Shown piece by piece: positions 5,582 through 40,256 of a stretch of DNA of 40,632 bases. Each line of letters begins with the position of its first letter. Positions within the stretch are counted from its first letter, which is position 1. The notes beneath the pieces are model-generated. The model was not told the DNA's origin and ran no database searches. It was given only the letters and a program-made list of their open reading frames with translations. This DNA comes from a virus (lineage: Duplodnaviria; Heunggongvirae; Uroviricota; Caudoviricetes): positions 1 to 40,632 of the IMG/VR virus record IMGVR_UViG_2541047846_000008; one strand, given 5' to 3'. The position numbers and the translations under genes were made by a program.

Positions 5582-6667
5582 TTACAGACACTTGACTACT
5601 GTTGAAACATCAGATTCTAGTGCTTCAATTTGTGCTCTATTAGCTTGGGTCGCCATACCATAGATAGTGTAACTCTTATGCTGCAGCCTACTTAAAGGGC
5701 ATCCCTCATGGTTTATTATTGCTGCAAGAGTATTACCATCTTTGACATTTTGAACTCTCTCGAAAGTAGCCACATTTGTGAACAGATGAGGATGTGTATT
5801 TAACAGGTCATCCGTGATTCTTTTGATCTCTTCTGCATGTGATTTGAATGCTTTTGCTGCATCACTTTCATTAGTTCTTGAGCGGTTTTGTACGAAAAGG
5901 TGTAGTTCAGGTAGTTCGATAAGGTTTTGCTTTGCTTCTTTGTTGAAATCTAAGAACATTTCATCTTGTTCTGACTTGTCAATAGACACTCCATAAATAA
6001 GTTTAACAAGGTTTTTTATTCCGCGAATTGATGCAGCATCGGCAGTGCAAGGGATAATTATTCTATTTGCCGCGACTACTCCCAATTCTGTGTAGCTGGC
6101 AAAACTTGGGTTACAATCAATAAAAAATGTTTTTGCTCTGTCAGAAATGTTTTTATCGGCTTCAAAAGATGCTATTAGATCTACCAGCAAAGATCGGCTT
6201 TTCTTCCATGCTTCTTTTACTGGGGATGAGCCAATGTGAGATATTAAGCGTGAACAGATATCAAGATCGACATCACCAGGAAGAATATATAAGTTCTCTG
6301 GCATTTTTGCATTAACATCATGGGCTCGTACAAAGTAAGAAGATTCATTTCCTAAACGAGACAAAGGAGATTTGCTAAAACGCTCCTTGATATAACCTGC
6401 GATTGTAACATTTCTGTCTCGCAATTTATTTAGATTTTCTTCCCCGGTACCATTGCCACCAAGAATAATTTCTGAAACGTTTGATTGAGGGCATGAGTCA
6501 ATAACCACAACATCTTGATCCGGATGAGATATAGCAAACTCAACGGCAAGATTATATGTAAGAAAAGTTTTTCCTACACCACCTTTGTTGTTCCATACTA
6601 AATATTTTGTATTGGTGGAAATCATATCTGCTACCCCATCTGTCGCTTCAGTACGTTCATTAATCAT
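5582..6667 (-). CDS. ParA/MinD-family P-loop ATPase with ~110-aa C-terminal extension; AT-rich moron next to repressor
   Basis: Deviant Walker A NNKGGVGKT near N-terminus, FIDCNPS and IIIPCTAD motifs; 361 aa; AT-rich; own terminator. Confidence 0.75.
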   Translation of the reverse strand: MINERTEATDGVADMISTNTKYLVWNNKGGVGKTFLTYNLAVEFAISHPDQDVVVIDSCPQSNVSEIILGGNGTGEENLNKLRDRNVTIAGYIKERFSKSPLSRLGNESSYFVRAHDVNAKMPENLYILPGDVDLDICSRLISHIGSSPVKEAWKKSRSLLVDLIASFEADKNISDRAKTFFIDCNPSFASYTELGVVAANRIIIPCTADAASIRGIKNLVKLIYGVSIDKSEQDEMFLDFNKEAKQNLIELPELHLFVQNRSRTNESDAAKAFKSHAEEIKRITDDLLNTHPHLFTNVATFERVQNVKDGNTLAAIINHEGCPLSRLQHKSYTIYGMATQANRAQIEALESDVSTVVKCL

Positions 6668-6901: not shown

Positions 6902-7642
6902 TTAAAGTCGATTATATTTAATCGACTCATGAATCAGTGCCTTACCCATAACATAAAGCTGATCTTGCGACTTCTCATCAATGTACCATTTCTCATAGGC
7001 GGGGTTATCCGAAAGAACAGCTAGTTTGTTGCCTTGCATTTGTAGACGTTTAACATGGAAAGTCTTACCGTAAACGAAAGAGTAAACTCCATCAGTCTGG
7101 AAGTGGCGAACGGAAATGTCGACAAACAATCGATCCCCGGAAACAAGAGTTGGGGACATACTATCTCCATTTACCGTCATAACTTTTATATCATTCTGAG
7201 AACGGTTTCCGAAAAGAGAACGGGCATGTTCAGTTGTGAACTCAATGGCGTAGAGCACATCAACATAGTCTGAAAGCATATAGGTCCCAGGTCCTGCGCT
7301 AACGCTAAGATCCAAAACTTCTATCCTGTATACATCGGGCTTTGTTGGATTGGGGATGCTTGCCATTTCCTTACATTCCTCTCTATCTCCAACACCATAT
7401 TCTAGATATGAAGCTGATACTCCAAGAGCCAACGCAAGTTTACTCATGACAGAGACACGTGGCTTCGCTGCGCCGATTGTGTATCGACGAGCCATTTCAT
7501 ATGTAACGCCCACAAGACTTTTGAGTTGAGTGACAGAGATTCCTTTGATTGTCATCAATTCGTTTAGTCTCTTGGCGAAATCTGGATACTTCTGTTCTTC
7601 TACCATAGGTAGAAGATTACTCACATCACACGCGCTAGTCAT
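6902..7642 (-). CDS. CI-like prophage repressor (N-terminal HTH, C-terminal S24 LexA-like autopeptidase)
   Basis: HTH segment followed by VNGDSMSPTL (S24 catalytic Ser) and downstream Lys; divergent from cro; internal ATG start consistent with a leaderless transcript. Confidence 0.85.
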   Translation of the reverse strand: MTSACDVSNLLPMVEEQKYPDFAKRLNELMTIKGISVTQLKSLVGVTYEMARRYTIGAAKPRVSVMSKLALALGVSASYLEYGVGDREECKEMASIPNPTKPDVYRIEVLDLSVSAGPGTYMLSDYVDVLYAIEFTTEHARSLFGNRSQNDIKVMTVNGDSMSPTLVSGDRLFVDISVRHFQTDGVYSFVYGKTFHVKRLQMQGNKLAVLSDNPAYEKWYIDEKSQDQLYVMGKALIHESIKYNRL

Positions 7643-7644
7643 TT

Positions 7645-7680
7645 CTATTTTAAGTAGTTGCAATTTGCTATTTTAAGTAG
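7645..7680. promoter_or_regulatory. Operator region of the cI/cro switch: two copies of CTATTTTAAGTAG
   Basis: 13-bp partly palindromic direct repeats at about 7645..7657 and 7668..7680 between divergent cI and cro. Confidence 0.5.
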
Positions 7681-34907: not shown

Positions 34908-35654
34908 ATGCATCGTATAGACACGAAAACCGCGCAGAAGGATAAGTTCGGCGCGGGTAAGAACGGTTTTACCCGTGGTAACCCCCAGACCGGCACACCT
35001 GCCACCGATCTGGATGATGACTACTTTGACATGTTGCAGGAAGAACTTTGTAGCGTGGTGGAGGCCTCCGGTGCCAGCCTGGAGAAGGCGCGGCACGACC
35101 AGTTGCTTACCGCGCTTCGTGCGCTGCTGTTAAGCCGCAAGAATCCGTTTGGCGATATCAAATCGGATGGCACGGTGGAAACGGCTCTCGAAAACCTTGG
35201 TTTGGGAGAAGGTGCTCCAGCTATTGGCGTTCCGTTCTTCTGGCCGTCCGCTGCAATGCCAAATACTGTAATCGACAGCTGGTCCAGTATGGTGTTTTTG
35301 AAGTTCAACGGCGCGAAATTCTCTGCCACTGATTATCCTGTGCTGGCGAAAGTGTTTCCTTCGCTGGTATTACCTGAAGCCCGCGGTGATTTCATTCGTA
35401 TCTGGGATGACGGGCGAGGTGCAGACGGTGGTCGCGAATTATTAAGCTGGCAGGAAGCTACAAACTTTTCTCAGTTTGCCGGGAATATAGTCGGAGGTGC
35501 GGGACACGCAATTAACTTTCATGATGGCATCGCCGGAAATCAGCCAGGATTTTCACGATTTAATTTCACCAGTAACTCTGTGGGTGATGGTGTGAATTTT
35601 GTTGCTGTCAGACCGCGAAATATTGCATTTAACTTTCTGGTGAGGGCTAAATAA
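34908..35654 (+). CDS. Tail fibre protein (constant N-terminus to about 35216, variable C-terminus inside invertible segment)
   Basis: 248 aa; crossover site inside the gene; an alternative C-terminal exon lies on the opposite strand. Confidence 0.8.
35187..35216. repeat. Left recombination (crossover) site of the invertible segment, inside the tail fibre gene
   Basis: ctcgaaaaccttggtttgggagaaggtgct; matches the inverted partner at 36925..36954 in 20 of 21 positions; resembles hix/gix-type sites. Confidence 0.5.
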
Positions 35655-36247
35655 TGAAACCTGTTTTTGATGAAAATGGGCTGGCCACAGTGCCGGGCGA
35701 TATGCGTTGTTTTTATTATGATGCTGAAACATCTGAGTATACGGGCTGGTCTGATGAATATATTAATACTGGCGTAAGTATGCCCGCCTGTTCCACTGGT
35801 ATTGACCCGGGCGAAAACATTCCGGGGAAAGTGGCAGTATTTACGGGTAAGGGATGGAGCCATGAAGAAGACTATCGCAATGAGACTGTTTACTCAACAG
35901 AAAATGGCGCAGCTGTTACAGTGGATTATATCGGTGCCATCAAAAACGGTTATGTCACGCTTTCACCGTTAACGCCATATGATAAATGGGATGGTGAGAA
36001 ATGGGTGACAGATACTGAGGCACAACACGGTGCCGCAGTAGAAGCAGCAGAAGCACAGCGCCAGTCACTGATTGATGCAGTAATGGCTTCCATTAGTCTG
36101 ATTCAGCTGAAATTACAGGCCGGACGGAAACTGACTCAGGCAGAAACAACCCGACTTAACACCGTGCTGGATTACATTGACGCGGTGACGGCAACAGATA
36201 CCAGCACCGCGCCGGATGTCATCTGGCCTGAACTGCCGGAGGCGTAG
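35654..36247 (+). CDS. Tail fibre assembly protein (Tfa), active orientation
   Basis: 197 aa; conserved C-terminal motif TSTAPD(V/I)xWPExP shared with the inverted copy. Confidence 0.8.
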
Positions 36248-36647
36248 GCCATTCAATATCGGGTGCTGTTGAAGTATCAACACGCATCAGCAGCACACGG
36301 TATTTCTTCCATTCGGTGAGAGTTGAAGTTTCTTCATCAGTTGCGATATCAGCATCAACAGCATCCTGACGCCAGGATATTTCACTGTCAGCTTTTTCCC
36401 GTAATTGGGATTTTTTAACTTCAGCAATAGCTATTAATTCCTTTTTGGTCGGCTGAGGAATATCTATCAGTGCTGGTTTTCCATTCAGTGTTCCAATCTG
36501 TTTTCCTGGTGGAATATCCATAAATAACTTTTTATGTTCTTCCTCACTGACTATTACACCATCATCAGGCCACAGACCTGATGCCTCAAATTTTTCTTTC
36601 TCCGATATGGGGAAAAAGCCATTTGATTTAGCGCTCCATACGTACAT
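36219..36647 (-). CDS. Tail fibre assembly protein (Tfa), alternative copy in inverted orientation
   Basis: 142 aa; C-terminal motif [15 protein letters not shown]; convergent with the other Tfa. Confidence 0.75.
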
Positions 36648-36648
36648 A

Positions 36649-36915
36649 TCAATACCCCACCGCTATAATGTCCACATTAAATCCCCCGGGACCTGCCTGC
36701 CAGATGCTGGCCCCTGTTAATGATTTTGTTTGATGAACAACCGCCACATTTGCTGGTGATTGTGTTTCAGTTGTTACAGTACCGATATCATTCCAGTTAA
36801 TTGAGATGGAATAGTTCGTTGTTGTAAACGACCGGGGGAAAGTTATGTGTCTTGCATTGGTGCCAATAGGAAATCCAAGATAAACACGCTGAATTATCAT
36901 TCCTCCAGGTAACAT
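36649..36915 (-). CDS. Alternative tail fibre C-terminal segment (promoterless; frame stays open upstream to the crossover site)
   Basis: Upstream in-frame sequence reads ..[12 protein letters not shown].., matching ..ENLGLGEGA.. of the expressed fibre. Confidence 0.6.
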
Positions 36916-36924
36916 AACCCAGTT

Positions 36925-36954
36925 AGCACCTTCTCCAAAACCAACCTTTCAAAT
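36925..36954. repeat. Right recombination (crossover) site of the invertible segment
   Basis: agcaccttctccaaaaccaacctttcaaat, inverted relative to the site at 35187..35216. Confidence 0.5.
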
Positions 36955-37015: not shown

Positions 37016-37579
37016 ATGATTTACGGGTATGTTCGTGTATCAACAAATCATCAGGATACAGAGTTGCAACGTCTTGCACTTGAGTCAGCTGGCTGTGAGC
37101 GAATTTATGAAGAATATGCCAGTGGCAGAACAGCTAATCGCCCTGTGTTAAAGGAATTAATTACGGTGATGAAAAGTGGAGATGAGTTGATTGTCTGGAA
37201 GTTAGATCGGATAGGGAGAAATGTGCTGCATGCGCTATTGATGTTTCAAAATCTGCACGAAAAAGGTGTTAATTTTCGGAGTATTACAGATGGCGTAGAC
37301 CTGAAAACAGCAAGTGGTCGCTATAATTTCCGTAATATTCTTTCTGCTGCGCAGTATGAATCTGATTTGAATAGCGAGCGAACTTTAGCTGGTTTGGCTA
37401 TTGCCAGATCCAAAGGCCGGATTGGTGGGCGTAGACCGAAGTTTAGCGACGAGCAGTGGCAACAGATGGGAGCGCTCATAGCGGCAGGGAAATCACGGCG
37501 TTATGTTGCACGTATCTATAACGTTGGGCTATCAACCCTATATAAACGATTTCCTGTTACTGGCATTCAAACGAAATAA
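37016..37579 (+). CDS. pin: Serine DNA invertase (Pin/Gin/Hin family)
   Basis: N-terminal YVRVSTxxQ catalytic Ser motif and C-terminal HTH; 187 aa; adjacent to inverted crossover sites. Confidence 0.9.
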   Translation: MIYGYVRVSTNHQDTELQRLALESAGCERIYEEYASGRTANRPVLKELITVMKSGDELIVWKLDRIGRNVLHALLMFQNLHEKGVNFRSITDGVDLKTASGRYNFRNILSAAQYESDLNSERTLAGLAIARSKGRIGGRRPKFSDEQWQQMGALIAAGKSRRYVARIYNVGLSTLYKRFPVTGIQTK

Positions 37580-37619
37580 TTTAAAAGCAATTTAAAGAGT
37601 TATTTGTCTAATGTTGGAA

Positions 37620-37655
37620 GCCGCAGCCACGTCGTATGCAAGAACGTGCTGCGGC
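37620..37655. terminator. Terminator-like hairpin between convergent pin and dinI-like genes
   Basis: Long imperfect GC-rich inverted repeat GCCGCAGCCACG ... CGTGCTGCGGC; no strong U-tract. Confidence 0.35.
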
Positions 37656-37722
37656 TGGCTGGCGAACTTTCGATAGTGCGAGTATTGAATGATTTCCAGC
37701 CGTTACCGATTTTACGTGTTAA

Positions 37723-37971
37723 TTAGTGAACAAACCACTCGTCAGCAGATTCCCAGGTATCTTTCAGAGTCTCCTGAACAAAAGTTTTTGCAGAATCCTT
37801 ATCTGCGGTGCGTGTAACAGAAAGGCCATCGTTGCTGGTGGCTTTTACGATCACCTCTACATCGTCATAACGTTTACTGATGCGTCGGGTTAATTCTTCC
37901 TTTAACGCATCCACAGCACCGGTTGGCATTTTAGTCATTTTTTCTTTGGCTATGCAGATTTCAATACGCAT
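37723..37971 (-). CDS. dinI: DinI-like protein (predicted RecA/SOS modulator)
   Basis: 82 aa; MRIEI.IAK and C-terminal TWESADEWF motifs as in DinI; two LexA boxes upstream. Confidence 0.8.
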
Positions 37972-37986
37972 AAAAGTCCCTCTATA

Positions 37987-38030
37987 CTGTGTTTGTATAC
38001 AGTATTATTTTTAACTGTATAGATAAACAG
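37987..38030. promoter_or_regulatory. Two tandem LexA (SOS) boxes upstream of the dinI-like gene
   Basis: taCTGTgtttgtatACAGta (37987..38002) and aaCTGTatagataaACAGtg (38015..38030); both CTGT-N8-ACAG. Confidence 0.65.
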
Positions 38031-38032
38031 TG

Positions 38033-39130
38033 TCAAGAGGCCTTATTTCTGCTCCTTTGGAGCTCTTCAAAACGATTATGTAAAGATTTCGGATACAGTT
38101 CGGTATATACCTGCCATAGCACGTTTAATGAACGATGCCCTGTAACCTGGGCGACTTCCTCAATACTAAAACCAGCCTCAAATAAGCGACTTGCCCCTTC
38201 TCTACGCAAATCATGGTATCGCAGATCTTTAATACCTAATTTGCTTCTTACCCTCTGGAATCCCGCAGTAACAGAAGTGCTGTTATATGGAAAAATGAAT
38301 TCTGATTTTTTGGGTTGTCGTTGGACGATATCCCAGGCTTCCCCAAGCAAGGCTACTTTCATATGGTTGCCTTCCTTTTTACGTGGATCTTTCCTGTCTC
38401 TTACGAGTATGGATTTTTGTTCCTGATCGAGATCCTCCCATCGTAATCGGCATACTTCACCGATTCGCATACATGACCACACAGAAAATTTGAGGATATC
38501 AACGAACGGAATTTTTGAGCATTTATGTGTAGATCGTTGTTGAAGACCTTCAATGAGCATGTCCAGTTCATCAGATGCCGGTCTACGATTACGACGATTT
38601 GATTTACCAATTAAACCAAGTTTAAGTAGATATGGACGAGCGGCTTTTGCTGGGTTTGATGTGTAATTAATTCCATATACAGGTTTGGCAGCATCCAGAA
38701 CACTGCCAAGATAACTAACATCGTGGCTAACTGTAGCTGGACCTGCACCAGCGTTGTTTCTTAGCCTGCAATGTTCAATTACGTCATTTTCTGTCAGTTC
38801 AGATAGTTTGAGCGCGGAGACGTCACTATCCATAAGCAGTTCCAGCACATATCTTTTAGTACGGCCTGCTTTACCTCCGGCATTTGGGTCATTTAAATAT
38901 TTGTGTAGTAAGTCACGGACTGTAAGTCCGTCAACTGCATTTGATGATGGAATGCCATATAGATCTAATTCCATCACTTTCTGTGTGCCCCATGTTTTGG
39001 CATGAGCATGTTTAGGGAATGTTTTACTTTCCCTGTAAGTGATAACACCTTTTTCTTTGATAATCACATTACAGCGATAGCGTGGTGTGCCATCGGATTT
39101 TAGTCGTTTCTCTATGTTATAGTATGCCAT
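38033..39130 (-). CDS. int: Tyrosine integrase (DusA-targeting type)
   Basis: 365 aa; C-terminal catalytic region with RxxR ... HDLRR ... Y pattern; adjacent to dusA. Confidence 0.9.
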   Translation of the reverse strand: MAYYNIEKRLKSDGTPRYRCNVIIKEKGVITYRESKTFPKHAHAKTWGTQKVMELDLYGIPSSNAVDGLTVRDLLHKYLNDPNAGGKAGRTKRYVLELLMDSDVSALKLSELTENDVIEHCRLRNNAGAGPATVSHDVSYLGSVLDAAKPVYGINYTSNPAKAARPYLLKLGLIGKSNRRNRRPASDELDMLIEGLQQRSTHKCSKIPFVDILKFSVWSCMRIGEVCRLRWEDLDQEQKSILVRDRKDPRKKEGNHMKVALLGEAWDIVQRQPKKSEFIFPYNSTSVTAGFQRVRSKLGIKDLRYHDLRREGASRLFEAGFSIEEVAQVTGHRSLNVLWQVYTELYPKSLHNRFEELQRSRNKAS

Positions 39131-39218: not shown

Positions 39219-40256
39219 ATGCACGATAATCATGAAGCACAAAAAATTAATCAAACCAGCGTGATGCCTGAAAAAACTGGTGTTTACTGGAATTCTCGGT
39301 TTAGCATTGCTCCTATGCTTGACTGGACGGACAGACATTGCCGTTATTTCCTGCGTCTGCTTTCCCGCAATACGTTGCTGTATACCGAAATGGTGACCAC
39401 AGGGGCGATTATTCACGGTAAAGGTGATTACCTGGCGTACAGTGAAGAAGAACATCCGGTAGCGTTGCAACTCGGGGGTAGCGATCCGGCGGCGCTGGCA
39501 CAGTGTGCGAAGCTGGCAGAAGCGCGCGGATATGATGAGATCAACCTGAATGTCGGCTGCCCGTCTGACCGGGTGCAGAACGGCATGTTTGGTGCGTGTC
39601 TGATGGGTAATGCGCAGCTGGTTGCCGACTGCGTGAAAGCGATGCGCGATGTGGTGTCGATTCCGGTGACGGTGAAAACGCGTATTGGCATCGATGATCA
39701 GGACAGCTATGAATTTCTCTGCGATTTCATCAACACCGTTTCCGGCAAAGGTGAGTGTGAGATGTTCATCATCCACGCACGTAAAGCCTGGCTTTCTGGG
39801 TTAAGTCCGAAAGAAAACCGTGAGATCCCGCCGCTCGATTATCCGCGTGTGTATCAACTGAAGCGTGACTTTCCGCATCTGACGATGTCGATTAACGGTG
39901 GTATCAAGTCGCTGGAAGAAGCTAAAGCGCATTTGCAACATATGGATGGCGTGATGGTCGGGCGCGAGGCGTATCAGAATCCGGGGATTCTGGCGGCGGT
40001 AGACCGAGAGATTTTTGGTTCCTCGGATACCGATGCCGATCCGGTGGCGGTAGTGCGCGCCATGTATCCGTACATTGAGCGTGAACTCAGCCAGGGTACG
40101 TATCTCGGCCATATTACCCGGCATATGCTGGGCTTGTTCCAGGGTATTCCTGGCGCGCGGCAGTGGCGGCGTTATTTAAGTGAAAATGCCCATAAAGCGG
40201 GTGCAGACATTAATGTGCTGGAACACGCGCTCAAACTGGTGGCGGATAAGCGTTAA
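39219..40256 (+). CDS. dusA: tRNA-dihydrouridine synthase A
   Basis: 345 aa; conserved Dus motifs; followed by pspG as in E. coli. Confidence 0.9.

Follow-up and report, generated by a model that had tools for sequence, protein, structure and literature searches.

A short locus at the integrase end of an Escherichia coli prophage, in which a promoter with two LexA boxes precedes one dinI-like gene and a hairpin, is very probably a self-contained, SOS-inducible accessory cassette (a 'moron') of the element that carries it. The prophage is integrated in dusA and is represented by IMG/VR virus record IMGVR_UViG_2541047846_000008; the 40,632 nucleotides (nt) of this record, analysed over their whole length, are referred to here as the window. 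The gene, its promoter and an SOS box are already present in public annotations, and the cassette is known as a common one, shared by many E. coli prophages. To these known facts the dual-operator layout of the promoter, found across enterobacterial genera, makes a small comparative addition.

Two LexA boxes on one predicted promoter

The first-pass annotation of this DNA, made from the letters alone, had described two CTGT-N8-ACAG boxes lying 12 bp apart, upstream of an 82-residue DinI-like gene at the integrase end of the prophage, and all of this holds (Table 1). The 40.6-kb window contains exactly two matches to CTGT-N8-ACAG, and the gap between them is indeed 12 bp (38003-38014). The core count by itself is weak evidence, as 0.57 matches to the core alone are expected per window and two or more are found in 10 of 100 shuffles. 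The full 20-mers behave differently. They deviate from the consensus TACTGTATATATATACAGTA at three and four positions, respectively, and a site with three mismatches, such as the one at 37985-38004 (TACTGTGTTTGTATACAGTA), appears in none of the 100 shuffles. Likewise, on an approximate score resembling the heterology index, which we derived from 22 known E. coli LexA sites, the box proximal to the gene reaches 4.9 and the distal box 5.2. Both values are better than the median of the training sites (7.0), the next site in the window scores 11.4, and mononucleotide shuffles yield no site at the scores of the two boxes. This third-best site (36471-36490, TGCTGGTTTTCCATTCAGTG) falls within the inverted tail-fibre-assembly gene and is at chance level, given that a shuffled window holds 0.4 sites at a score of 12 or better. 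Scoring of the whole window for LexA-like sites reveals no further SOS-controlled unit in the prophage, and as far as the sequence can tell the promoter of the dinI-like gene is the only credible LexA target in the element.

The boxes are placed on promoter elements. Read along the gene strand, the elements follow one another in the order TTGACA (38036-38031), a 17-nt spacer (CTGTTTATCTATACAGT), TAAAAA (38013-38008), TAA, the proximal box, the Shine-Dalgarno sequence and the ATG; AAAAAT with an 18-nt spacer provides an alternative register for the -10 hexamer. All of the spacer is taken up by the distal box. The proximal box begins 3 nt past the -10 hexamer, extends over the predicted start of transcription (about 37999-38001) and stops 13 nt short of the ATG. 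One box in the spacer and another over the start site is the classic geometry of a LexA-repressed promoter, the promoter itself being a predicted one of the sigma-70-like kind. The integrase gene lies directly upstream and reads in the same direction, and its stop codon TGA (38033-38035) falls within the -35 hexamer. Control of int by the boxes was considered and is ruled out, since the int gene ends upstream of the boxes, and since phages with no int at this place have the same promoter with its boxes.

The DinI-like protein and its transcription unit

The 82-residue product matches the Pfam DinI family (PF06183) along the entire profile (positions 1-63 of 63), with 70.9 bits against a cut-off of 24.2 (E = 1.1e-19), and E. 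coli DinI (PDB 1GHH and 7YWA) over residues 1-81 (E = 3.7e-13). It also matches PHROG family phrog_189, 'RecA filament binding protein DinI', at 5.7e-31, covering only positions 71-149 of the 151 positions of that family. An identical protein carries the name 'DinI-like family protein' in RefSeq (WP_001217553.1). The single-sequence AlphaFold2 model, with a predicted local distance difference test (pLDDT) value of 77, shows the alpha/beta order expected of the family, strand-helix-strand-strand-helix, with a long C-terminal helix; in the PDB only 1GHH (E = 1e-5) and 7YWA (E = 1.5e-5) match this fold significantly, at TM-scores near 0.65.

Cryo-electron microscopy and mutagenesis have defined the determinants by which DinI occupies the RecA groove, a pocket formed by L13, L21, W71, W77 and F78 and an acidic patch formed by E24, E69 and D76 (PMC9926225). 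In an alignment to E. coli DinI, the equivalents in the 82-residue protein are M15, L23, W73, W79 and F80 for the pocket and E26, D71 and E78 for the patch; five of the eight RecA-contact positions are identical and the other three are conservative replacements. Judged by its sequence, the protein has the features needed to occupy the groove of the RecA filament.

In the list of open reading frames, none of 30 or more amino acids follows the dinI-like gene on its strand, and given that the prophage holds no other credible LexA site, the unit is therefore monocistronic. The fold of 37590-37725 (minus strand) has an energy of -35.5 kcal/mol (z = -3.4) and takes in a GC-rich hairpin that may serve as a terminator or stabilise the RNA. 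Other phages share the hairpin, their homology starting at about 37607-37621.

Distribution of the cassette and its prophage setting

Counted at a coverage of at least 80%, the 341-bp stretch of promoter and gene is present in 1691 of 5426 complete E. coli genomes (31%), in up to seven copies per genome. At the DNA level it is 99.7% identical in mEp460 and 99.4% in SKA5, where it is again located directly downstream of the same integrase, and 90-95% identical in cdtI, 2H10 and dozens of phages encoding Shiga toxin (Stx), both Stx1 and Stx2; the identity is 90.6% in VT1-Sakai and 72% in BP-4795. With the single protein as query, a search of viral contigs yielded nothing but near-identical copies from E. 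coli. In phages without an adjacent integrase, the homology begins at about 37607-37621 and stops at about 38036-38040, which is at the -35 hexamer or a few bases beyond it. Given these sharp boundaries, seen in phages with different neighbours, the unit, which has its own promoter, moves as a promoter-gene-hairpin cassette. Its place varies; mEp460 has it beside int, as does the present prophage, whereas in cdtI and the Stx phages it follows the tail-fibre genes close to att. Parts of it are annotated in database records. That of mEp460 marks the same 29 bp as a promoter, and that of VT1-Sakai (AP000400) names the gene DinI and gives it a promoter and a 'putative SOS box', only the proximal box being marked.

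The operators are retained along with the gene. The CTGT and ACAG cores are invariant among 20 E. coli promoter variants, and phages whose DNA is 72-91% identical still have both boxes. Individual copies depart from this pattern. In BP-4795 (L005, 1505-1753), the pocket tryptophan that contacts RecA (W73 in the present protein, W71 in E. coli DinI) is replaced by Arg and the distal box reads CTGG...ACAA, a degraded form; the gene may be in decay. In the Stx2a phage Stx2_499 (L006, 1523-1765), a related dinI beside nleC is without the promoter, both boxes and the normal N-terminus (MPHRYPAA...). As the 5' end of this dinI has been replaced, not every prophage copy of the gene is LexA-controlled.

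Is the second operator peculiar to this window? We scanned 130 nt upstream of each of 80 dinI loci, one genome per species, obtained by an alignment-based search of genome contigs and representing the best 80 of at least 407 loci. Two boxes are carried by 11 of the 15 loci whose protein is at least 56% identical (L087-L101) and by none of the 65 other loci (L102-L166), an association of two boxes with the phage-type clade that gives p = 1.3e-10 by Fisher's exact test, uncorrected for phylogeny. The two-box clade comes from Escherichia, Shigella, Mixta, Erwinia, Pantoea and others, and the flanks inspected (Mixta, Erwinia and Pantoea) are phage-like, with tail-fibre, Ant/BRO-like and Arc-like genes, and with smpB beside a probable ssrA attachment site. 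Here the boxes lie mostly 13-15 and 39-42 nt from the ATG (31 and 59 nt at the Pantoea locus) and about 26-28 bp apart, and in most loci TTGACA directly abuts the distal CTGT, an arrangement kept in Escherichia, Mixta and Erwinia. The exceptions with a single box are L101 (Rosenbergiella), which keeps only the spacer box, and L092, L094 and L097, which keep only the proximal box. More than half of the remaining loci (35 of 65) are chromosomal dinI genes adjacent to pyrC, each with only one box, which lies 15-23 nt before the ATG (18-20 nt in most). The predicted two-operator promoter is a conserved trait of the phage-type DinI clade and no accident of the window. Enterobacterial-type dinI loci with E. 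coli-style boxes also turn up under the labels of a Chryseobacterium sp. (L091), a Vagococcus sp. (L118) and two metagenome-assembled genomes, assigned to Saccharibacteria (L092) and Wohlfahrtiimonas (L093); these labels probably reflect assembly contamination or mis-binning.

The prophage around the cassette is lambdoid in its early genes, which include an antiterminator Q and a CII-like protein, and has a contractile tail; its integrase is situated at the extreme end, beside dusA and pspG. The first-pass annotation had called its repressor a CI of the S24 type, and the domains bear this out (Table 1). The translation carries an Ala-Gly site together with the serine of GDSMSP and the lysine of VKRL (Ser/Lys dyad), and the true start is probably an internal ATG. 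A sequence search of the PDB with this CI gave no match at E <= 0.001. Given the S24 domain, the Ala-Gly site and the Ser/Lys dyad, induction by RecA-stimulated self-cleavage is expected, and CI is presumed to be the RecA*-dependent switch of the prophage.

Immediately downstream of CI and on the same strand, a gene for a 361-residue ParA/MinD-like ATPase (AAA_31, CbiA; 5582-6667, minus strand) represents an unusual cargo for an integrated lambdoid prophage and could be partition- or defence-related. In E. coli strain 81, a displaced fragment of the original dusA is annotated at the opposite end of the element (L002, 13046-13150), the int-dinI-invertase end sits in a heavily degraded remnant, and the host lexA gene is found about 4 kb past the far (attL) end of that remnant. 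The window also holds a 25-nt inverted repeat (35192-35216 and 36925-36949), the arms of which are 88% complementary and 1708 nt apart. Between the arms, genes for tail-fibre C-terminal parts and for tail-fibre assembly are found on the plus strand (35654-36247) and on the minus strand (36219-36647 and 36649-36915), and the segment is adjoined by a gene for a Hin/Gin/Pin-type serine invertase (Resolvase and HTH_7; 37016-37579, plus strand). The repeat and the invertase form an invertible host-range switch of the Mu/P1/e14 kind.

Table 1. Coordinates of the cassette elements and of the prophage and host genes discussed in the text, numbered along the window
Feature	Position	Strand	Remarks
Predicted -35 hexamer TTGACA	38031-38036	minus	Perfect match
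Distal LexA box CACTGTTTATCTATACAGTT (gene strand)	38013-38032 (core 38015-38030)		Second-best score in the window, 5.2
Predicted -10 hexamer TAAAAA	38008-38013	minus	4/6 versus TATAAT; promoter scan
Proximal LexA box TACTGTATACAAACACAGTA (gene strand)	37985-38004 (core 37987-38002)		Best score in the window, 4.9
Shine-Dalgarno GAGGG	37978-37982	minus	6 nt upstream of the ATG; read from the sequence
dinI-like coding sequence	37723-37971	minus	82 amino acids, ATG start; single DinI domain, no N-terminal extension
GC-rich hairpin	37619-37656	minus	About 65 nt past the dinI stop, between the convergent dinI-like and invertase genes
Tyrosine integrase, dusA-specific	38033-39130	minus	Pfam PF00589 at 1.1e-20; adjoins dusA in the E. 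coli strain 81 annotation
dusA	39219-40256		Beyond the integrase, intact reading frame; prophage at the dusA 5' end
CI-type repressor	6902-7663	minus	HTH_3 and Peptidase_S24 (Pfam)

Predicted role and relation to known systems

In the mechanism that we propose, LexA dimers would sit on both operators in an undamaged lysogen, the dimer in the spacer blocking the binding of RNA polymerase and the other covering the start. Because both operators are near consensus, LexA would keep basal expression very low and derepression would need deep depletion of LexA, as expected in late or strong SOS; high-affinity or double SOS boxes are known to give no detectable basal expression (PMC2994835). Upon DNA damage, RecA filaments would trigger the self-cleavage of LexA, the promoter would fire, and a short monocistronic mRNA would direct synthesis of the 82-residue DinI paralogue. 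The paralogue would dock in the groove of the filament formed by RecA on single-stranded DNA, by way of the hydrophobic pocket and the acidic patch that chromosomal DinI also uses. It would add to the DinI dose of the cell, stabilise filaments and compete with the clients of the groove, among them UmuD, CI-type repressors and LexA. The identity and fold of the gene product, its retained contact residues, the anatomy of the promoter with its operators and the conservation of the arrangement are shown by the analysis; the occupancy by LexA, the timing of expression, the binding to RecA and the net effect on induction are the parts of this scheme that we infer. Our best guess is that the outcome is a modest braking or threshold effect on slow cleavage substrates (CI and UmuD), and not a requirement for induction.

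LexA control of prophage dinI homologues has already been shown experimentally in Salmonella, and the locus described here carries little weight as a discovery. Upstream of the homologues of Gifsy-1, -2 and -3 there is a LexA box and a promoter, and mitomycin C causes a tagged Gifsy-2 DinI to accumulate (PMC3121763). Each gene has a single box, located 19 nt before its ATG (heterology indices 3.9-5.3), and nalidixic acid raises expression 4.6- to 23-fold (PMC8072944). Gifsy dinI heads a LexA-controlled operon that also encodes an antirepressor, in the order dinI-antirepressor-irsA (Lemire et al. 2011, PMC3121763). For E. coli, literature searches for a functional study of a prophage DinI returned only annotations and speculation. 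The dinI statements of one preprint concern the chromosomal gene.

Several observations weigh against a tightly repressed, independent unit that acts on induction. The LexA score used to rank the sites is approximate and the -10 hexamer is weak, matching at four of six positions. Between the centres of the boxes there are 28 bp, or about 2.7 helical turns, a distance that favours two blocks acting independently over cooperative LexA dimers. Read-through from the co-directional int could add LexA-independent expression of the dinI-like gene, or could itself be blocked by bound LexA. The terminator scan finds no canonical intrinsic terminator after the gene, the hairpin being without a U-tract. 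Non-polar deletion of the Gifsy-1 and Gifsy-3 dinI homologues caused no significant change in the level or the rate of induction (PMC3121763), suggesting that the physiological effect may be small or redundant, and there are E. coli genomes with as many as seven cassette copies in addition to chromosomal dinI. Given that Gifsy prophages are induced by antirepressors and not by repressor cleavage, the deletion test does not settle the case of a phage with an S24-type CI.

What the cassette does for its carrier can be accounted for in more than one way. One possibility, conceivable if doubtful, is that it acts as an induction timer or brake for its own prophage. Occupancy of the groove late in SOS would slow the cleavage of the S24-type CI, only sustained damage would bring about induction, and co-resident prophages would be affected in trans. 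CI is a LexA-like self-cleaving repressor, the RecA-contact residues are retained in the DinI-like protein, and DinI and lambda CI bind the same RecA elements, the L2 loop and the basic patch (PMC9926225). Two strong operators, moreover, predict tight repression until LexA is deeply depleted, and many CI-type lambdoid and Stx phages carry the cassette. For Stx2a phages it has already been suggested, as a speculation, that a dinI of the phage would limit induction (PMC8456039); the first-pass annotation had likewise proposed that the protein dampens or times RecA-dependent cleavage of CI, or affects the SOS response of the host or competing prophages. The idea is reasonable and plausible, and it is not a new one. 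Yet induction of the Gifsy prophages, antirepressor-driven as they are, was unchanged by the dinI deletions, and the usual presence of chromosomal dinI and several prophage copies means that the marginal contribution of one more may be small. Moderate levels of DinI, moreover, stabilise RecA filaments and do not inactivate them (PMC9926225), which could equally favour the cleavage of CI.

It is just as conceivable, and as doubtful, that the extra SOS dose of DinI mainly serves the lysogen, for instance by restraining the cleavage of UmuD and SOS mutagenesis or by keeping filaments stable for repair, and has no role in the choice between lysis and lysogeny. The promoter-gene-hairpin unit has the anatomy of a moron, it resides in unrelated phage backbones and positions and in 31% of complete E. 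coli genomes, and no induction phenotype was seen in the Gifsy prophages. The cassette persists in degraded remnants as well, as in strain 81, although this may just reflect its position beside int and att, and the host that would profit already has a dinI of its own. A far-reaching version of the braking account strikes us as unlikely. In this version the phage-type 82-residue DinI clade would be functionally distinct from chromosomal DinI, two near-consensus LexA operators would confine its expression to deep or late SOS, and in competition with S24-type repressors for the RecA groove it would determine how much damage induces its own prophage and when, and would do the same in trans to every other CI-type prophage of a polylysogen, Stx phages included.

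We reject, as highly improbable, a function like that of Tum, in which the product would be a LexA-controlled antirepressor that binds the phage repressor and does not act on RecA. The thought is prompted by Tum of phage 186, which is LexA-controlled and DinI-like in its C-terminal half, and by the position of Gifsy dinI at the head of a LexA-regulated antirepressor operon (PMC3121763). The antirepressor activity of Tum resides in its other half (PMC3121763), and the counterpart of that N-terminal half is absent from a protein of 82 residues that covers phrog_189 only from position 71 to 149 of 151. In PSP3 the activity maps to an upstream non-DinI gene (PMC3121763), no open reading frame of at least 30 amino acids follows the present gene on its strand, and a CI with an S24 cleavage module of its own needs no antirepressor. 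Hardly credible at all is the idea that the boxes are chance palindromes or sites of another factor, with the gene constitutive or read through from int, for although the core is not rare and the co-directional int ends within the promoter, nothing else in the window or the shuffles comes near the full 20-mers in quality, both sit exactly on promoter elements and are retained together with the gene in several genera where the flanking DNA has diverged, and the cassette occurs with its boxes in many phages without int.

The reading that we prefer, an SOS-inducible cassette with at most a modest influence on slow RecA-dependent cleavage, has some practical relevance. About a third of complete E. 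coli genomes carry the cassette, often in several copies, and it is found on Stx-converting phages; if it does shift the RecA-dependent cleavage of repressors, the induction of prophages by antibiotics and the release of toxin would be affected. The two operators of the phage-type clade, as opposed to the one of chromosomal dinI, constitute a defined and testable difference in the expected timing of expression.

Among known systems, the closest are the phages that carry the same cassette, namely VT1-Sakai (H0001, DinI), mEp460, SKA5, cdtI, BP-4795 and many Stx phages. Their database records mark one SOS box and leave the distal box, in the spacer, unannotated. VT1-Sakai differs in having CTGG...ACAG as its distal core, no adjacent integrase and a small downstream gene, H0002, proposed to be co-transcribed, whereas the unit described here is monocistronic. 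The Gifsy genes resemble it in that a prophage gene of the DinI family stands directly behind a LexA box and a sigma-70 promoter. They differ in their single box, in an operon that includes an antirepressor and in repressors that undergo no cleavage; the present gene has two boxes, at 13 and 41 nt from its ATG, and no antirepressor downstream, and its prophage has a CI of the S24 type. With chromosomal dinI the gene shares the family, size and fold of the product, the C-terminal WESAD(D/E)WF helix, all eight RecA-contact positions and LexA control. The two proteins are 47% identical, and the chromosomal gene is adjacent to pyrC and has a single box, whereas the present one is phage-borne and has two. 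Tum of coliphage 186, together with the split tum genes of Fels-2 and PSP3, is likewise a LexA-controlled phage gene with a DinI-like C-terminal half, yet Tum has 146 residues including an antirepressor half, and the protein here consists of the DinI domain only. Finally, colicin operons, lexA and recN have double SOS boxes, and like the present locus they place two LexA dimers on one promoter, with tight repression (PMC2994835). In the colicin operons the boxes overlap, whereas in the prophage cassette they are separate, each on a different promoter element.

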